Part shown: piece after piece, positions 58-6,675 of the stretch | How positions within the stretch are numbered: the first letter of the stretch is position 1 | How the letters are laid out: the number at the start of each line of letters is the position of its first letter | NCBI GenBank assembly: GCA_040776945.1 | Contig: JAXGZN010000002.1 | Span: forward strand, 768,001 to 832,000 | From: Methanomassiliicoccaceae archaeon | GTDB lineage: Archaea; Thermoplasmatota; Thermoplasmata; Methanomassiliicoccales; Methanomassiliicoccaceae | Direction of reading: 5' to 3' | Length of the DNA: 64,000 nucleotides | The notes under the pieces: generated by a model | The model's input: the letters and a program-made list of their open reading frames with translations, nothing else | What the model was told of the DNA's origin: nothing | The model's database searches: none | Program-made: the position numbers and the translations under genes

Positions 58-947
58 CCCTTGGTCTCTGCTTCCACTCTAGGATCGTTCCCGATATTTC
101 TCCAAGAAGATCCGACGAGCTATCGAGACTCCTGATCGCCAATCATTTGATGTTAATCTAACAGCTTATTTATCTAATGTCATATCGTATATAGATAAAA
201 TATTTAATGTATCATCAATACGACTATGATTTGACCGATCATTCAGGGCTTTACATGGTATTCTTAGCCCCGATCTTCCATCTTTTCGTAAACGTCACAA
301 AGCTCATTCAGGAACTGATCATAGGTCCTTCGGAACTTCAAGCGGTACAAGCGGTCCCTCGTTGCCGGGGATATCTGTATGCTCGTCTTCGGCTCAACGG
401 CTTTTTCTTCCATTTTTGACGTTCTCCTTGTAGACGGGCATCAGGGTCCCGCCCGATCATATGTGTTATTGAAATTATAGATATAATTGTTCTTATAGAA
501 ACATACAATATATTCATAACCAATAATATCAATTGAACATTGTTACAATTTATACATTATAGTCAACAACGGTCTCCCGAATATCAAATTGATTTGGACC
601 TTCCATTGTACAATTTTGCGTACTACGCAATTTTTCCTCACTTAATCATTATCTGATATTAGAATAAATAATCTATGAAGATGCCGGGCAATGAGACGCT
701 AATTGCTTTCCGAGGAGTAAAGGAGCTGCACGATCCATGGAAAACAAGGATGAAAAATGGTTAAAAATCCTGGATAAATAGCATATTTATCGGGGATTTT
801 CAAGGTTATTTTTATGTCGCTGCAACCCCACGCCTTGATCGTGATCGAAGAACGAACCTCCGCCTATCAATCAAGGTCGAAAGCTATCCAAGTAGATGAT
901 GTTGTGATTTTTCAAACGATAAGGTCTTTCATTCAAGAAACGAGCAT

Positions 948-968
948 AAAAAGGATTGGAAGGGGTTT
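948..968 (-). terminator. Pyrimidine-rich terminator-like tract
   Basis: Minus strand reads AAACCCCTTCCAATCCTTTTT about 30 nt after the stop of 997..1539. A near-identical tract follows the thermosome gene. Confidence 0.5.
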
Positions 969-996
969 ATTATTGCTCCTTAGGCGCGCAGCGGGA

Positions 997-1908: not shown

Positions 1909-2733
1909 TCAAGGCGCTGGAACCCTTCCGATCTCATCCAGTGCTCTGAGGTACGCTTTCCTTCGGGACTCATAACCCTCCCTGTTCGAACCGAACGGAA
2001 CATATTCAGAGACCTTCCATCCACTGGACACCAGGCGGCATTTTGTATCGTCGGCGAGCCCCTTGAGGAAGCTTAGCTCCATCATATCGCGATCATGGAA
2101 CCTGCGCTGGACCCATTCCAGGAGCTCGGGGTCATGGGTCGCTACGCAAAAGGGCACATCCCTGGAAATTATCTGCTCCACAAGGTCCTTGTAAGCCTCG
2201 GATATCAAGGTGAAGTCGCGGATATCCCCTGTGTAGGTGCCCTTGACAAGCCTGATCCTGGCTCCGGCATCGAGCATTCTCTCGATATCACGAGGGGTGC
2301 GGTTCAGGTATGCTTGAAGCGCCACCGTGATCCCCAGGCCTGAAAGGGCGAGATTCTCCGCCATCTCCAGGGTGAGGTCCACCATCCGCTGGCCTTCCAT
2401 GTCCAATTCGAACCCCACATGGAGCTCATTGCTTCTCTCGCAAATAGCTCGAACGAACCTAACGGTATGCTGCCTCCCGACGGTGCCTCCCAGGGTGGAT
2501 GGTTTGACCGCGATCGATGCTCTCAGCTGTCGCCCTTCGATCTCAGCCAACAGCTGCATGTAATCATTGACGGAACGGCGAGCTTTCTCCTCGTCCTGGC
2601 CATAGCGTCCCAGAACGTCCATGATGCAACGGATCCCCTGCTCGTTCCTTCTAAGGCACCATTTGAGCGCGGCATCTTGGTCTGGAAGGGTCCATCTGTC
2701 AGGCATCGGACCTATATTGAGCGCTCGTATCAA
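1909..2733 (-). CDS. Proline dehydrogenase (monofunctional PRODH family)
   Basis: Motifs 'AVKPSTLG', 'LDME', 'ALQAYL.RT', 'IRLVKGTY', 'VATHD' and 'YVPFG...Y..RR'. The true start may be ATG at 2706. Confidence 0.85.
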   Translation of the reverse strand: MIRALNIGPMPDRWTLPDQDAALKWCLRRNEQGIRCIMDVLGRYGQDEEKARRSVNDYMQLLAEIEGRQLRASIAVKPSTLGGTVGRQHTVRFVRAICERSNELHVGFELDMEGQRMVDLTLEMAENLALSGLGITVALQAYLNRTPRDIERMLDAGARIRLVKGTYTGDIRDFTLISEAYKDLVEQIISRDVPFCVATHDPELLEWVQRRFHDRDMMELSFLKGLADDTKCRLVSSGWKVSEYVPFGSNREGYESRRKAYLRALDEIGRVPAP

Positions 2734-2738
2734 AAAGG

Positions 2739-3566
2739 TTAGGAGCCTCCCTCGTTCAGGGTCCTCGCCTTTCGCTTCCTGGGGTCCCTCGTTCTGGAGG
2801 CGGCGAGATGTTGAACGCTGTTGAAATCATCCAATCCGATTATGGATGCGTGGCCGCTCCGCACCAGATATCCGTCCCATCTCCGATAGCCGGCATAGGC
2901 TGGATTATGCAGGATCTGACGTATGGAGTATATCGTCCACAATGACCCTCTCCGAGTGAGAACCCCCCGTCCGTTGAGCGCCTGAGCGATATCGTTCATC
3001 GAACGGCCAGAGAGATAGGATGAAAATATCTCCCGTACCACCTCCGCCTCGCCATCCCTTAGGACAAGGTCATTGCTCTCAATGTCGTAACCGAACGGAG
3101 GGTTGAACCCCAAAAGCCCCCCCGACTCGGCCTTCTGAGCCATGCCCATGTAGGTCCTCTCCCCGATCTGCTCCGACTCCAGCTGGGCTATCCTCTGGAT
3201 CATGTCGACGACGAACCTGCCGATGGAGGTAGAGGTATCCAGTTCTTCCCACATCGAAGTGAACTTCTTGTCCCATCTCTCTAGGTCCTCCATCATGATC
3301 ATGAAGTTCTTCGAGTTACGATGGATGCGGTCCATCTTGAGGACGAGGATATTGTCCCAACGGTCCTTCTCCGCCATCATCCTCTTGTACTCCTCTCTGT
3401 TGGACACCTTCCTGCCAGTATGGCCGCGGTCCACATATATTCCAGCGATCTCCCATCCCTGAGCCTCGCAATATGCGATCAAGCGTTCCTGCTGAGCCTC
3501 AAGGGAGTAACCCTCTTCGGCCTGCTCCTCGGTGGACACCCTGATATAAATTGCGGCCCTAGTCAT
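2739..3566 (-). CDS. Serine recombinase (resolvase catalytic domain plus recombinase DNA-binding domain), paralog B
   Basis: 'AAIYIRVSTEEQ' catalytic Ser motif, 'KMDRIHRN', 'AQLESEQIGER', 'PFGY' and 'IL.NP.Y.G'. 275 aa with no zinc-ribbon/coiled-coil C-terminus. Confidence 0.92.
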   Translation of the reverse strand: MTRAAIYIRVSTEEQAEEGYSLEAQQERLIAYCEAQGWEIAGIYVDRGHTGRKVSNREEYKRMMAEKDRWDNILVLKMDRIHRNSKNFMIMMEDLERWDKKFTSMWEELDTSTSIGRFVVDMIQRIAQLESEQIGERTYMGMAQKAESGGLLGFNPPFGYDIESNDLVLRDGEAEVVREIFSSYLSGRSMNDIAQALNGRGVLTRRGSLWTIYSIRQILHNPAYAGYRRWDGYLVRSGHASIIGLDDFNSVQHLAASRTRDPRKRKARTLNEGGS

Positions 3567-4386
3567 CCGCAGCCACCTCCACCTGGCGATGCGATGCTCC
3601 CTGCCTGTTCCTGCGCCGCTCCTCCATCATGTCCTGCACCAAATTGAACGAGCTGGGAGAGACAAGCTGCGTGTGCCCCAGCGGCACGAGGTGCCCGTCC
3701 CAACGGGCGTACCCGCAATATAGAGGGTTTCGCAGAATGGCACTTACCGTCTGCTTGCTCCACCTGCCTCCCTTTTTCGACGGGATGCCTCGGCCGTTCA
3801 GGTCACGGGCGATCCCATCCAGGGAATGGCCTGAGATGTAGCTATGGTAGATGAACGGAACGACCCCGGCCTCCCGGTCATGGGCCCTGAGGCCGCCGTT
3901 CTCGATGACATAGCCATATGGATCGGGGCTCCCAAGGTATCCGGAGGCCTCCTTCGCCTTTTGGAGCATGCCTATCTTGACCCTCTCCCCGATCTGCTCC
4001 GATTCCAGCTGGGCGATCCTCTGGATTATGTCCATCACGAATCGGCCCATGGCCGAGGTGGTGTCGAACTTCTCCTGCATCGAGCTGAACTGCTTCTTCC
4101 ATTCGTTCAGGTCGTCCATCATCTGGGTGAAGTTCCTCGAGTTGCGATGGATGCGGTCCATCTTGAGGACCAGGAGGACGTCCCAGAGACCTCGTTCGGA
4201 CATCATTCGCTGATACTGGGGGCGGTTCACGTCCCGACCGGAGTACCCCTCGTCGACATACTCTCCGCTGACGCTCCATCCCTTGGCCTTGCAGAAGGCG
4301 TTGAGCCGTTTCAGCTGCGCTGGTATGCTGAACCCTTCCCTGGCCTGATCATCGGTAGAAACCCTGGCATAGATGGCGGCACGCAA
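3559..4386 (-). CDS. Serine recombinase (resolvase catalytic domain plus recombinase DNA-binding domain), paralog A
   Basis: 'AAIYARVSTDDQ', 'KMDRIHRN', 'PYGY' and 'ILRNPLYCG'. A TTG start at 4386, 8 nt after a GAGGTG RBS, gives 275 aa (the ORF track extends to 4449). The stop overlaps the next start. Confidence 0.92.
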   Translation of the reverse strand: MRAAIYARVSTDDQAREGFSIPAQLKRLNAFCKAKGWSVSGEYVDEGYSGRDVNRPQYQRMMSERGLWDVLLVLKMDRIHRNSRNFTQMMDDLNEWKKQFSSMQEKFDTTSAMGRFVMDIIQRIAQLESEQIGERVKIGMLQKAKEASGYLGSPDPYGYVIENGGLRAHDREAGVVPFIYHSYISGHSLDGIARDLNGRGIPSKKGGRWSKQTVSAILRNPLYCGYARWDGHLVPLGHTQLVSPSSFNLVQDMMEERRRNRQGASHRQVEVAADD

Positions 4387-4592
4387 TTGAACGACACCTC
4401 TGCCCGGTGATGGTCCCGGGTGCATCCCAAAATCGTATCGGCTGCTCAAGGTTAAGTTTTCCTATCTGAAAACGGCCGCGTGCATAACATCTTCTTAATT
4501 GATTATTATTTTAGCATGTAACTTTTCTATGTTTTCTATTATATCTATCATCTTACGCAATGATTTAATCTGATATCCACAATCGTTTCATC

Positions 4593-5009
4593 ATGGCAGA
4601 GAGCCCAGAATCCAAGATGGCAAGGCTCCGAGAGGAGTTCGGAGGCTTGGTGGACGACGCCACCATTCGCCGCCTGGTTCTGGAGGACAGAGGGAACAAG
4701 ATGGCAACAAGCAAGTTAGCGGACCTGAAGGACAGGGAAGAGGTCTCTGCAGTGGTCAGAGTAACTAAGATCAACAACGCCAGGACATTCAATAAAAGAG
4801 CTGGCGGACAGGGCAGGGTGAGGAACATCGATATAGAGGACGATTCCGGCAACTGCCGCCTTACGCTATGGGATGAAGATGTTGAGCTTCCAGAGCAGAT
4901 GGAGATAGAGATCGGCACGCAGCTCGTTCTAACGGATTGCTATGTGAAAAAGACCGATTTTGGTACCGACATCTCAAAGGGGAGGAAAGGAAAGATAGAG
5001 AAGCTATAA
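4593..5009 (+). CDS. Single OB-fold ssDNA-binding protein (RPA/SSB-like)
   Basis: RPA-like N-terminus 'EEFGGLVDD...LV' and OB motifs 'RTFNKRAGGQGRV', 'IEDDSGNCRLTLWD' and 'YVK'. Confidence 0.85.
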   Translation: MAESPESKMARLREEFGGLVDDATIRRLVLEDRGNKMATSKLADLKDREEVSAVVRVTKINNARTFNKRAGGQGRVRNIDIEDDSGNCRLTLWDEDVELPEQMEIEIGTQLVLTDCYVKKTDFGTDISKGRKGKIEKL

Positions 5010-5319: not shown

Positions 5320-6675
5320 TCAAGGCTTCCTCGGCCTGGTCATAAAGAACGCCAGGATGCCTATGGAGATCGCTCCCAAGGCTACGAAGAAGAAGCCTAG
5401 GTACGGGGCCTTGAAGAAGAAGTCCTGGATCAGACCGCCGCCTTTGACTTCCGATGTCAACTTGGCAGTATAGGCATCGATGGACTTGATCTTGTCACTG
5501 ACCACCTTCGCGTCCATAGGGTCCATGGAGACCTGGCTGCCAAAGAGGGCGGTGACGTACCCGGCCTCTTCGGGCAGGGCAGGCATGCTGCCGCCCATGT
5601 TCATGTACATTCCGGCAAGGAATCCCTCGTCCTGGGAGTACAGGAACGTGGCGCCGTCATTGACCTGGATCTTCATGTACTTCTTCAGTTCGCCGTTCAC
5701 AGTGTGAGTGACCAGACCGTTCATGCACCGCATCTTGATGGGTTCGACAGTGCTGTTGTACGGCCCGAACTTGCCGTTCTTGATCTCCCCGTCCGGACTG
5801 TTCAGTTTCTCAAAGCTTATGGGGAAGTCCGTGGCCCCGGTAGCGTTCCTCAGCTCTTCGGTGAATATCTGGGCCTTGATATCATCGGTCAGCCCATGGG
5901 CGTTCACGTGGCCGTTGACGCTGCCTGCGACCGTCAACGCGGTCTCGTTGGTCCACCAGGTCTCACCCTGGACCACCGGCGCCTGGAACAGGTCCAGAGC
6001 CGGCGTGAAGTCCATATACAGGTCGACCCCGGCGACGGCCTCGAAGCCCACATCGTAGTCTTTGTACGAGATGATCTGGACGCTTCCGGTGGTATTGATG
6101 TCAGGTATGTTCTTGGCATCGATCTCAACGCTCAGAGCGCCCTTGAAGGACCAAGTGATGTTGGTGATGGCCATGCTGGTTTTCTCAACGGTCGCGGTCC
6201 CGGTCAGCACCACGCCCATCTTCTCTTCCAGGTCGATGCTCACGGTCTTGGCCTCCTTGGCCACGGTCGACTTGGGATCGAAGGGGTTGTCATAGACGCC
6301 GTATGTGCCGGCCACCGGCATTCCTCCAGTGACCTTAAGGTTGGCCGATGTGGCGAACCGGAAGGCCATCTTGGCCGTGATGGAATAGGTCGTCGCCGTT
6401 TCGCCGGTTATCTCGAAAAGCACGTAGTAGGCCACCTTGGAATCGACGCTTAACCGATCGATGGTCACGTTGGCCTGGCTTTTCAACAGGTTGTCGATAT
6501 AGCTTAATTTGGAGGTGACGTTGGCTCCGAGGTCAATCTCCTTGCCCATGCCCCAGCGGTCGCCCACCTTCAGGACCGGATCGGAGGCCGAGGCCGTACC
6601 CAACGGCACCATGACCATGCCGAGGAGGAACAACCCGACGACCATCAACGTGGCCGCAGATGTGATCTTGCTCAT
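5320..6675 (-). CDS. Hypothetical secreted, C-terminally membrane-anchored beta-rich protein
   Basis: 451 aa with an N-terminal signal peptide ending near 'TASA', a C-terminal TM followed by a basic 'RPRKP' tail, and host-like codon usage. Confidence 0.75.
   Translation of the reverse strand: MSKITSAATLMVVGLFLLGMVMVPLGTASASDPVLKVGDRWGMGKEIDLGANVTSKLSYIDNLLKSQANVTIDRLSVDSKVAYYVLFEITGETATTYSITAKMAFRFATSANLKVTGGMPVAGTYGVYDNPFDPKSTVAKEAKTVSIDLEEKMGVVLTGTATVEKTSMAITNITWSFKGALSVEIDAKNIPDINTTGSVQIISYKDYDVGFEAVAGVDLYMDFTPALDLFQAPVVQGETWWTNETALTVAGSVNGHVNAHGLTDDIKAQIFTEELRNATGATDFPISFEKLNSPDGEIKNGKFGPYNSTVEPIKMRCMNGLVTHTVNGELKKYMKIQVNDGATFLYSQDEGFLAGMYMNMGGSMPALPEEAGYVTALFGSQVSMDPMDAKVVSDKIKSIDAYTAKLTSEVKGGGLIQDFFFKAPYLGFFFVALGAISIGILAFFMTRPRKP

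Follow-up and report, generated by a model that had tools for sequence, protein, structure and literature searches.

The minus strand near the start of a 64,000-nucleotide stretch of a Methanomassiliicoccaceae archaeon genome (assembly GCA_040776945.1, contig JAXGZN010000002.1, positions 768,001 to 832,000; hereafter the window) carries two adjacent serine recombinase genes that we call SrA and SrB. A non-coding 28-bp element lies 2.2 kb downstream of SrB, and we consider it very probable that this element is the cognate site of the two proteins. The gene pair is laid out as follows, in window coordinates.

3559..4386, minus strand: SrA, the upstream serine recombinase, 275 residues from the TTG at 4386, with a catalytic and a recombinase domain and the helix motif WSKQTVS
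2739..3566, minus strand: SrB, the downstream serine recombinase, 275 residues from the ATG at 3566, with domains as in SrA and the recognition-helix motif WTIYSI
3559..3566, minus strand: 8-bp overlap of the SrA stop and the SrB start, ATGACTAG
3319..3344, minus strand: 26-bp block, copy in SrB, encoding part of VLKMDRIHR (the catalytic D-R..R motif)
4145..4170, minus strand: 26-bp block, identical copy in SrA

The SrA frame is open up to 4449, and from its first TTG the open reading frame (ORF) 3559-4449 on the minus strand would encode 296 residues. We favour the TTG at 4386 as the start because a Shine-Dalgarno-like AGAGGTG (4395-4401) stands 8 nt before it. The SrA stop TAG (3561-3559) and the SrB start ATG (3566-3564) meet in the minus-strand junction GATGACTAG, and this 8-bp overlap is consistent with translational coupling. 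The two proteins are 55 % identical (142/260 positions, E 9e-104) and have the RVST, KMDRIHRNS and IQRIAQLESEQIGER motifs in common, while their recognition-helix motifs differ, WSKQTVSAIL in the upstream gene versus WTIYSIRQIL in the downstream gene. The WTIYSI motif of SrB falls on a predicted helix at residues 212-219. An earlier note on this DNA had described two overlapping 275-residue paralogs with these motifs, the 26-bp identical block and the unlike recognition helices, and on re-reading the letters we found each of these exactly as quoted. The 26-bp DNA identity stands out between paralogs that are 55 % identical in protein; it could be a trace of gene conversion or of extreme constraint on the D-R..R motif region.

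Both proteins match the Pfam Resolvase family PF00239 (E 1.6e-34 and 1e-33; 116.9 and 119.5 bits for a cut-off of 23.3), which makes them members of that superfamily, and they are the sole PF00239 matches in the 2.17-Mb genome. The C-terminal half corresponds to the Recombinase family PF07508 (E 5e-19 and 9e-20; 71.3 and 68.9 bits for a cut-off of 21.1), and both proteins end about 15-20 residues past this domain. In neither protein did Pfam report a zinc-ribbon family at E<=0.01, in line with the earlier claim that a zinc-ribbon/coiled-coil C-terminus is lacking. Pfam likewise reported no helix-turn-helix family and no tyrosine recombinase family, so that a Phage_integrase-type catalytic domain is absent from both. 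The best NCBIfam match is CcrB, at 159 and 142 bits for a cut-off of 900 and covering model positions 7-238 of 542; the CcrA model gives 104 and 89 bits for a cut-off of 700. Neither protein is therefore an equivalog of CcrA or CcrB, and the nearest named families (CcrB, CcrA, CcrC and XisF) all score far under their cut-offs. The nearest solved relative by sequence is the catalytic domain of TP901-1 integrase (E 7e-22). An AlphaFold2 model of SrB (mean predicted local distance difference test score 79, recombinase domain 86-97) is matched by Foldseek to the DNA-bound Bxb1, PhiC31 and 4KIS complexes (E 7e-15 to 2e-6), the match to these large serine integrases spanning the catalytic and recombinase domains only.

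Fourteen diverse members all have R9, S11, D79, R80 and R83 (SrB numbering), and by analogy with gamma-delta resolvase we take them to be catalytic. The catalytic R-S and D-R..R positions and the E-helix carrying IQRIAQLESEQIGER are at least 90 % conserved in A (44 sequences), in B (45) and in the single-copy outgroup (21). The consensus of E-helix and catalytic core is identical between A and B, and fixed differences in the recombinase-domain helix separate A from B.

To estimate how widely the pair is distributed we used 151 genomes of the order Methanomassiliicoccales, 119 of them of high quality, and counted SrB matches at E<=1e-10. Matches occur in 139 of the 151 (114 of the 119 high-quality genomes and 33 of the 34 genera), exactly two in most matching genomes. 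Both genes are present in 43 distinct loci, and in every one the A-like gene precedes B; the 8-bp overlap is retained in 24 of these loci, and 36 have an overlap or a gap of at most 30 nt. In a tree of 112 rows, from which the duplicate loci L010, L015, L016 and L023 and fragments shorter than 240 residues were left out, the downstream genes form one clade (45 rows) with a support of 99 in the Shimodaira-Hasegawa-like approximate likelihood ratio test (SH-aLRT). The upstream genes form the other clade (44 rows, SH-aLRT 93), and the family subclades are mirrored in both.

Across the phylum, 146 of 301 sampled genomes have a match; most matching genomes outside the order have a single copy, 50-57 % identical. 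Matches are mostly lacking in the sister orders of the same class, where 6 of 29 genomes match only weakly, at E 2.5e-27 or worse. The neighbours across the phylum are housekeeping genes (thermosome, Nre, radical SAM, S8e, SRP19, proteasome, FttA, RFC, TruD and RpoL), and the order and the outgroup have parts of the synteny of the recombinase locus in common. SrA and SrB are an ancient, vertically inherited chromosomal core pair and not the remnant of an element. They are in this respect conserved host recombinase genes, of the kind that dimer resolution systems use. They are not borne on a phage, an integrative conjugative element or a cassette with att sites, as large serine integrases are; their surroundings are housekeeping, there is one site per genome and their inheritance is vertical. 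Patchy, strain-specific presence with flanking att repeats, which the earlier note had named as the outcome that would speak against a domesticated pair, is not what these genomes contain, and the conservation of pair, synteny and A and B clades, which it had proposed to check, is.

When the non-coding DNA flanking the pair was compared by k-mers across 21 loci of seven families, one shared element emerged, which lies in the window as follows.

561..588, no strand assigned: candidate recombination site, plus strand AGTCAACAACGGT CT CCCGAATATCAAA
561..573: left arm of the site
574..575: central dinucleotide
576..588: right arm of the site
420..996, no strand assigned: AT-rich non-coding stretch around the site, GC content 37-43 %

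The arms are asymmetric, 5 of 13 positions being symmetric, and we found no palindromic version of either arm near the site of the order. The 19-mer core of the site occurs once in the window, where 0 are expected, and once in the genome. At no more than 2 mismatches the core is present in 86 of the 151 genomes of the order (69 of the 119 high-quality ones), nearly always once, and the reversed pattern used as a control has no match in any of the 151. The sole genus without a match has a version with 2-3 mismatches in 5 of 5 genomes, with 0 control matches. SrB coordinates were at hand for 81 of the 86 genomes, and in 71 of these the site is on the same contig. It lies downstream of SrB with constant relative orientation in 70 of the 71 cases, at a distance of 5 kb or less in 58 and 10 kb or less in 65 (median 2.4 kb; closest 111-136 bp). 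The two central bases vary between lineages (CT, TC, AC, GT) and the flanking ACGG and CCCGAA are fixed; a variable centre between constant arms is what is expected of a crossover dinucleotide.

The site is single in the window's own genome, occurs about once per genome across the 86 genomes and once in the outgroup genome G331. Five genomes of family f45 have one site place each; G273 shows two copies at contig ends. Two apparent duplications were rejected: a second copy in G084 belongs to a second strain at 79-91 % identity, and of two matches in G095 one is a chance match in a coding region and the other probably a diverged site. We found no duplicated or split site and no inserted element in six loci of the order with a gene-to-site distance of 4.7-15 kb. 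In two loci where genes and site are about 15 kb apart, giant ORFs of 1,599-3,233 residues lie between them (L195 3790-15961 and L196 1404-11105).

Relatives outside the order allowed the site to be compared with the elements that accompany single-copy genes. We searched 40 outgroup loci on both strands for a 13+2+13 palindrome with no more than 4 arm mismatches around CGGTAGACCG (no more than 2 mismatches). A palindrome lies within 1 kb of the recombinase gene in 30 of the 40 loci, and 31 of the 32 palindrome matches fall within that distance, for 2.2 expected per shuffled set of all 375 kb. The palindromes have arms of 12-13 bp, a 2-bp centre and the inner core CGGT-AG-ACCG, with perfect 13-bp arms in L081 and L095, and stand upstream or downstream of the gene depending on the lineage. 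Their geometry is that of small resolvase and invertase sites, two inverted arms of about 12 bp around a 2-bp centre. The site of the order keeps the inner core only: on the minus strand it reads TCGGG AG ACCGT, as in the palindromes, and its outer arms are unlike each other. In L095 (3265-4023), L096 (4261-5001) and L097 (2753-3511) a second, divergent serine recombinase-like ORF with 27-41 % identity to SrB directly follows the conserved one, and the palindromic site is retained there.

The inner core is conserved across classes, and the outer arms change together with the helix motif of the protein. GGTTACC arms go with the motif WAKKT; TCAAC arms go with WG(T/S/K)QT, and with WASQT in two of five; GTGGC arms go with WD.KT..RILSNP, and with WNKKT in one of nine. 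The four outgroup loci in which Sr genes stand in tandem are a different case: by the above search none has a palindrome (in L079 the second copy is divergent). One of them, L083 of G331, is an independent tandem pair with a hybrid site, unique in that genome at no more than 3 mismatches, that joins one TCAAC arm to one GGTAACC arm. Its two proteins fall in the TCAAC-arm clade (ultrafast bootstrap/SH-aLRT 99/97) and in the GGTTACC-arm clade (98/94), and they carry WGSET and WAKKT, matching the arm types of their clades. Among the tandem pairs of family f47 there is an asymmetric candidate in L092 and nothing clear in L093. Immediately 5' of these tandem pairs stands a small ORF with the motif IGNSQGIILPK (L092 ~560-720, L093 ~520-680), which from this motif alone we presume to be AbrB/SpoVT-like.

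In our view nothing argues more strongly for the elements as binding sites, and for tandem pairs working as heterodimers, than the co-variation of arms and helix motifs together with the L083 hybrid. The same motif comparison would assign the left arm (AGTCAAC...) to SrA, whose WSKQT is near the TCAAC-type motif, and leave the right arm to SrB. The earlier note had proposed a heterodimer on an asymmetric site; the proposal now gains a candidate site that is unique, asymmetric, linked to the operon and homologous to the outgroup palindromes, with L083 as a natural control.

The position of the site on the chromosome was estimated from oligomer strand asymmetry. On contig 1 of the window's genome the strand bias of 4- and 5-mers switches at 750-770 kb, a position shared with the best orc1/cdc6 match (751 kb), and this coincidence validates the method. 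Weights trained on contig 1 and applied to contig 2 give a cumulative curve that peaks at about 716 kb, with a plateau at 650-730 kb; the position of the site is 768.6 kb. In 13 complete genomes the site lies at 0.31-0.50 of the circle from the main orc1/cdc6, 12 of the 13 at 0.38 or more, these fractions being calculated by hand and five of the genomes entering with rounded sizes.

The outlier at 0.31 is G034, where orc1/cdc6 is at 140 bp. We took 40 evenly spaced 20-kb samples of this chromosome and applied an unsupervised bipartition of 5-mer strand bias. The best partition has one breakpoint at about 0 kb and the other in the interval from 466.6 to 483.8 kb (chi 11256, median 2413), and the site at 466,155 is within 18 kb of the switch; the site therefore follows the skew switch and not the geometric antipode. 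Genes and site are more than 40 kb apart in four complete genomes, and in all four the site is nearer the antipode, a small hand count in which two of the sites are 3-mismatch calls. Oligomer skew thus suggests a position of the site near the terminus in the window's own genome and in G034. The complete genomes of the largest family have a second orc1/cdc6 paralog, in the half of the chromosome opposite the main orc1/cdc6 and 40-240 kb away from the Sr locus; in the window's family and in a third family the second paralog is 50-90 kb from the main copy. The strand-bias scores of G034 show no clear second switch at its second paralog.

The archaeal Xer recombinase, XerA, is not conserved in the order. 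The XerA model matches 37 of the 151 genomes at E<=1e-30 (32 of the 119 high-quality genomes) and exceeds its cut-off in 3 of the 151. These matches are patchy (window's genus, 4 of 10 genomes; largest family, 8 of 64), and a first look gave no Xer candidate in several complete genomes of the order. In the sister orders of the same class the model matches 29 of 29 sampled genomes. The best XerA match in the window's genome scores 182 bits for a cut-off of 220, and its surroundings led us to reject it as XerA. It lies 125 bp from a tRNA-Leu gene in an island whose other genes encode a DDE transposase, an HNH endonuclease, a fragment of a DNA methylase and a HerA-like (HerA/DUF87) ATPase. It is therefore the tyrosine integrase of this integrated element, which is inserted at tRNA-Leu(CAG), at about 454,000-464,400 of contig 1 (L192 1-10,402). 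A search for xerA had been suggested at the outset as a check on the pair, and this is its result.

Across the phylum the Sr and Xer patterns are only partly complementary. In a tally of the 301 genomes made by hand, and so open to copying slips, a strong Sr match (E<=1e-60) is present in 114, XerA over its cut-off in 59 and the two together in 6. Xer at E<=1e-30 is found in 46 of the 114 Sr-positive and in 142 of the 187 Sr-negative genomes.

The observations on gene anatomy, conservation, uniqueness and linkage of the site, its homology to the palindromes, the co-variation of arms and helix motifs, and the skew position can be brought together in one model. SrA and SrB would be domesticated short serine recombinases, each made of a catalytic domain and the recombinase domain of large integrases, and co-expressed from one operon. 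It is likely, judging from the arm and motif patterns, that they form a heterodimer on the site, and this A-B heterodimer would bind the two unlike 13-bp arms of the single chromosomal site at 561-588. An A2B2 tetramer would then synapse two copies of the site. With one site per chromosome, near the terminus, directly repeated copies would be present only on a chromosome dimer or multimer. Cleavage and subunit rotation at the non-palindromic central dinucleotide would yield two monomers, and the asymmetric centre would forbid antiparallel joining.

One site per chromosome, apparently near the terminus and repeated directly only on dimers, makes dimer resolution the expected job, and we think that this is rather probably what the pair and its site do. 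Of the two jobs proposed earlier, dimer resolution fits the single site, its position near the skew-inferred terminus and the lack of a conserved XerA; programmed inversion does not fit because inversion needs two sites. Taken together, a heterodimeric serine recombinase/dif-like dimer resolution module is on balance our best explanation of the locus. We further hypothesize, with a little more confidence than doubt, that Methanomassiliicoccales and the single-enzyme Thermoplasmatota lineages resolve dimers by a serine recombinase at a gene-adjacent dif-like site that displaced XerA/dif. Duplication and arm divergence would have turned a homodimer on a palindrome into an obligate A-B heterodimer on an asymmetric site.

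Several points weigh against this interpretation. Only 86 of the 151 genomes of the order show the site at no more than 2 mismatches, and the remaining ones may have diverged or unassembled versions, or none. A hairpin and T-run follow the site at about 620-650, so that a short transcript could still arise from the region. The plain GC skew of the window's genome is flat and gave no terminus, which is why oligomer strand asymmetry was used instead; the maximum of the latter in this genome is broad, with the site 40-50 kb past the peak. The skew test covers two genomes only, G034 being sampled at 54 %. The genomes placed on the circle are also kin, and conserved architecture alone could keep the locus opposite the origin. 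The Xer and Sr distributions are not cleanly complementary, 46 of the 114 Sr-positive genomes having a XerA match at E<=1e-30 and 6 over the cut-off, and in family f27 eight genomes carry both Sr and Xer. Nothing was found, neither accessory sites nor a directionality factor or translocase partner, that could tip the reaction toward resolution. That the proteins bind the site, form a heteromer, act as catalysts there and resolve dimers is in each case inferred. Finally, in two outgroup families the palindrome is 2-9 bp from, or inside, the start region of the gene, and so autoregulation is at least part of its role there.

The alternatives can be taken in turn. It is conceivable, if unlikely, that recombinase and site are a real pair with a different job, as a landing pad for integrase-less plasmids or viruses or in another terminus-linked DNA transaction. 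That some Sr-bearing genomes also have Xer-like genes agrees with such a job. Elements that exploit XerCD/dif rely on a host system whose own task is dimer resolution, and insertions at the site would thus be equally compatible with the main model. Against a landing pad stand the six loci of 4.7-15 kb gene-to-site distance and G084, none of which has a duplicated or split site or an insertion. A pair that is inherited vertically and kept almost everywhere in the order also speaks for a housekeeping benefit.

Quite unlikely, in our view, is the absence of an A-B heteromer, with SrA and SrB forming separate homodimers or homotetramers on sites of their own, or one subunit being by now a non-catalytic accessory or regulatory protein. 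SrA and SrB both retain every catalytic residue and might thus work independently of each other, and the search, which returned one site, may have missed another that is less conserved. On the other side, the single site has unlike arms and no palindromic version of either arm nearby. The E-helix and catalytic core, at least 90 % conserved and with an identical consensus, form an interface that would presumably not keep A and B apart. The fixed order of overlapping or abutting genes across the order and the hybrid site of the independent L083 pair also point to a heteromer.

A role of the proteins mainly as DNA-binding regulators, either autorepressors or factors of a replication/segregation regulon with the element as operator, seems to us improbable. 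Resolvases such as that of Tn3 are known as autorepressors, and this precedent counts for the regulatory reading, as do the palindromes at the gene start in the two outgroup families. A pure binder would not be expected to keep the catalytic Ser, Arg and D-R..R strictly conserved across the phylum. The site of the order, 0.1-10 kb downstream of the operon with other genes between, is in a poor place for an operator, and its centre varies between constant arms.

That the element is a small RNA gene, a promoter or a terminator merely travelling with the locus is very improbable. Its AT-rich surroundings, the TATA-like boxes upstream and the hairpin and T-run 20-50 nt downstream in many genomes of the order are what one would look for in such a case, and the outgroup palindromes just after a gene could form hairpins. 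The site has no Rfam match at E<=1 and no tRNA, and RNAalifold gives no conserved fold, with 3 invariant pairs and zero covariation. Neither the site of the order nor that of L083 is able to pair with itself. The element stands up- or downstream of the gene by lineage, and its inner core is kept across classes as the outer arms change with the helix motif. The last alternative, a remnant of an integrative or conjugative element, has next to no chance of being right and is contradicted by the data: the nearest named families are indeed cassette and phage recombinases (CcrB, CcrA, CcrC, XisF, all far under cut-off), but presence is near-universal, the A and B clades are mirrored, the synteny is housekeeping, and there are no flanking repeats and no element genes.

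We return to the surroundings of the pair, beginning with the region upstream of SrA.

4387..4450, minus strand: SrA leader and promoter, with the Shine-Dalgarno-like sequence at 4395-4401, a covarying hairpin, the conserved GGGATGCAC at 4420-4428 and a TATA-like AAAACTTAACC at 4440-4450

The hairpin (4402-4419, minus strand) follows GGGATGCAC, and among species of the genus it has paired substitutions, CCCGG/CCGGG versus CGAGG/CCTCG, which suggests that the SrA 5' leader is structured. We considered GGGATGCAC as a start codon and rejected it; it is out of frame in a close relative and thus more probably belongs to the transcription start or the leader. Another candidate that we gave up, this time for the crossover site, was the set of repeated TGTCAGACA/TGTCTGACA motifs that precede SrA in other families of the order. 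They were rejected because genome-wide scans showed the same composite motif before smc, and the composite is now read as a shared promoter or operator motif. It consists of a TATA element, GTCnGAC N4 GTCnGAC and then GGGATGGGATGC, and it precedes smc in four genomes and the SrA-SrB operon in other families of the order, a sharing that counts in favour of the model. In the window's own genome (G000) the motif stands before smc and before the TFS-PCNA operon, and the SrA promoter keeps the last part only. The motif may mark a replication/segregation, perhaps cell-cycle, regulon with a putative factor. Its places are the following.

G000 contig 1, 516,660-516,741: composite motif upstream of smc (513,750-516,650)
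G000 contig 1, ~1,009,534: composite motif upstream of a 327-residue ORF, TFS and PCNA
G000 contig 2, ~103,017, and loci L086, L087 and L088 at ~3,000: composite motif, other places

The genes on either side of the pair are given as context only.

1909..2733, minus strand: Pro_dh-like gene (E 3.9e-24), starting 5 bp past SrB
4593..5009, plus strand: single-OB-fold RPA-like gene, divergent from SrA

The earlier note had named these neighbours as a proline dehydrogenase and a single-stranded DNA-binding protein (SSB). The former is borne out by the Pro_dh match; the latter is weaker, the resemblance of 4593-5009 to replication factor A or SSB being under curated cut-offs only. The Pro_dh-like gene adjoins SrB in two loci of the same genus and in G065 and is elsewhere displaced or unmatched (cluster 8 in 7 of 21 loci), and the RPA-like gene is syntenic in 11 of the 21 order loci, which were fetched with 6-kb flanks. 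No mobile-element genes occur in the 14 kb before the window or in its first 9 kb, as expected from the statement that phage, insertion sequence and conjugation genes are missing nearby. At 5320-6675 on the minus strand lies a gene for a 451-residue protein with an N-terminal signal-like segment, a C-terminal membrane anchor and no Pfam match; it adjoins the thermosome gene and is syntenic in 11 of the 21 order loci.

If the model is true, SrA and SrB would be the first serine-recombinase chromosome segregation system and the serine counterpart of XerCD. No chromosome segregation by serine resolvases is known according to an excerpt of PMC8987985, and a passage of PMC8371274 states that archaeal serine recombinases have never been investigated. 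Cortez et al. (PMC2958812) expected Xer-less archaea to have recruited 'another tyrosine recombinase'. Neither a chromosomal system of serine recombinase and dif-like site nor Xer in Methanomassiliicoccales is the subject of any paper returned by our full-text literature search, which did not extend to subscription journals and supplements.

The locus is thus a testable candidate for the missing case of segregation by a serine resolvase, with two genes, a 28-bp site and arm-by-arm predictions. The single copies with palindromes and the two independent tandem pairs with hybrid or asymmetric sites make a natural series for the study of DNA reading and of heteromer and site co-evolution. Enzymes of 275 residues with short, programmable-looking half-sites may interest builders of recombinase tools. 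For annotation, genes called 'recombinase family protein' in these archaea are poor markers of mobile elements.

Among known systems, the large serine integrases (TP901-1, A118/LI, Bxb1, PhiC31) match Sr by sequence and fold in their catalytic and recombinase domains. At about half the size of these enzymes (~400-700 residues), Sr proteins lack the zinc ribbon, the coiled coil and the directionality machinery for att sites, and are chromosomal and cargo-free. CcrA and CcrB of SCCmec resemble SrA and SrB as serine recombinase paralogs encoded side by side, and CcrB is the best NCBIfam match; the differences are that Sr has no cassette, is not mobile and covers model positions 7-238 of 542.

Site geometry is what Sr has in common with Hin/Gin and with Tn3/gamma-delta res site I, namely inverted arms of 12-13 bp and a 2-bp centre. 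The hix, gix and res site I sequences are 26-28 bp long, with inverted arms around a 2-bp crossover centre. Enzymes of the Hin, Gin and Tn3 type (~180-210 residues) read DNA by a C-terminal helix-turn-helix and need two sites plus an enhancer or accessory sites, whereas Sr reads by its recombinase domain and has one site per genome, and no accessory sites were identified.

In the arrangement of gene and site, the closest likeness is to XerS/difSL of streptococci and lactococci and XerH/difH of Helicobacter and Campylobacter, single-recombinase modules that are taken as dimer resolution systems. Like Sr, each is a chromosomal recombinase with a single target site close by, near the terminus. 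XerS and XerH are tyrosine recombinases, and Sr is a serine recombinase, which would make double-strand breaks and rotate subunits at a 2-bp centre. Both systems are named in PMC8987985 and PMC5357621. In bacterial XerC/XerD-dif, as proposed for SrA and SrB, two paralogs are each expected on one arm of an asymmetric terminus site. The superfamily is unrelated, and, according to PMC2958812, the xer genes adjoin neither each other nor dif and the reaction is controlled by FtsK. Archaeal XerA/dif solves the same presumed problem with, as PMC2958812 describes, a tyrosine recombinase whose site has 11-bp arms and a 6-bp spacer.

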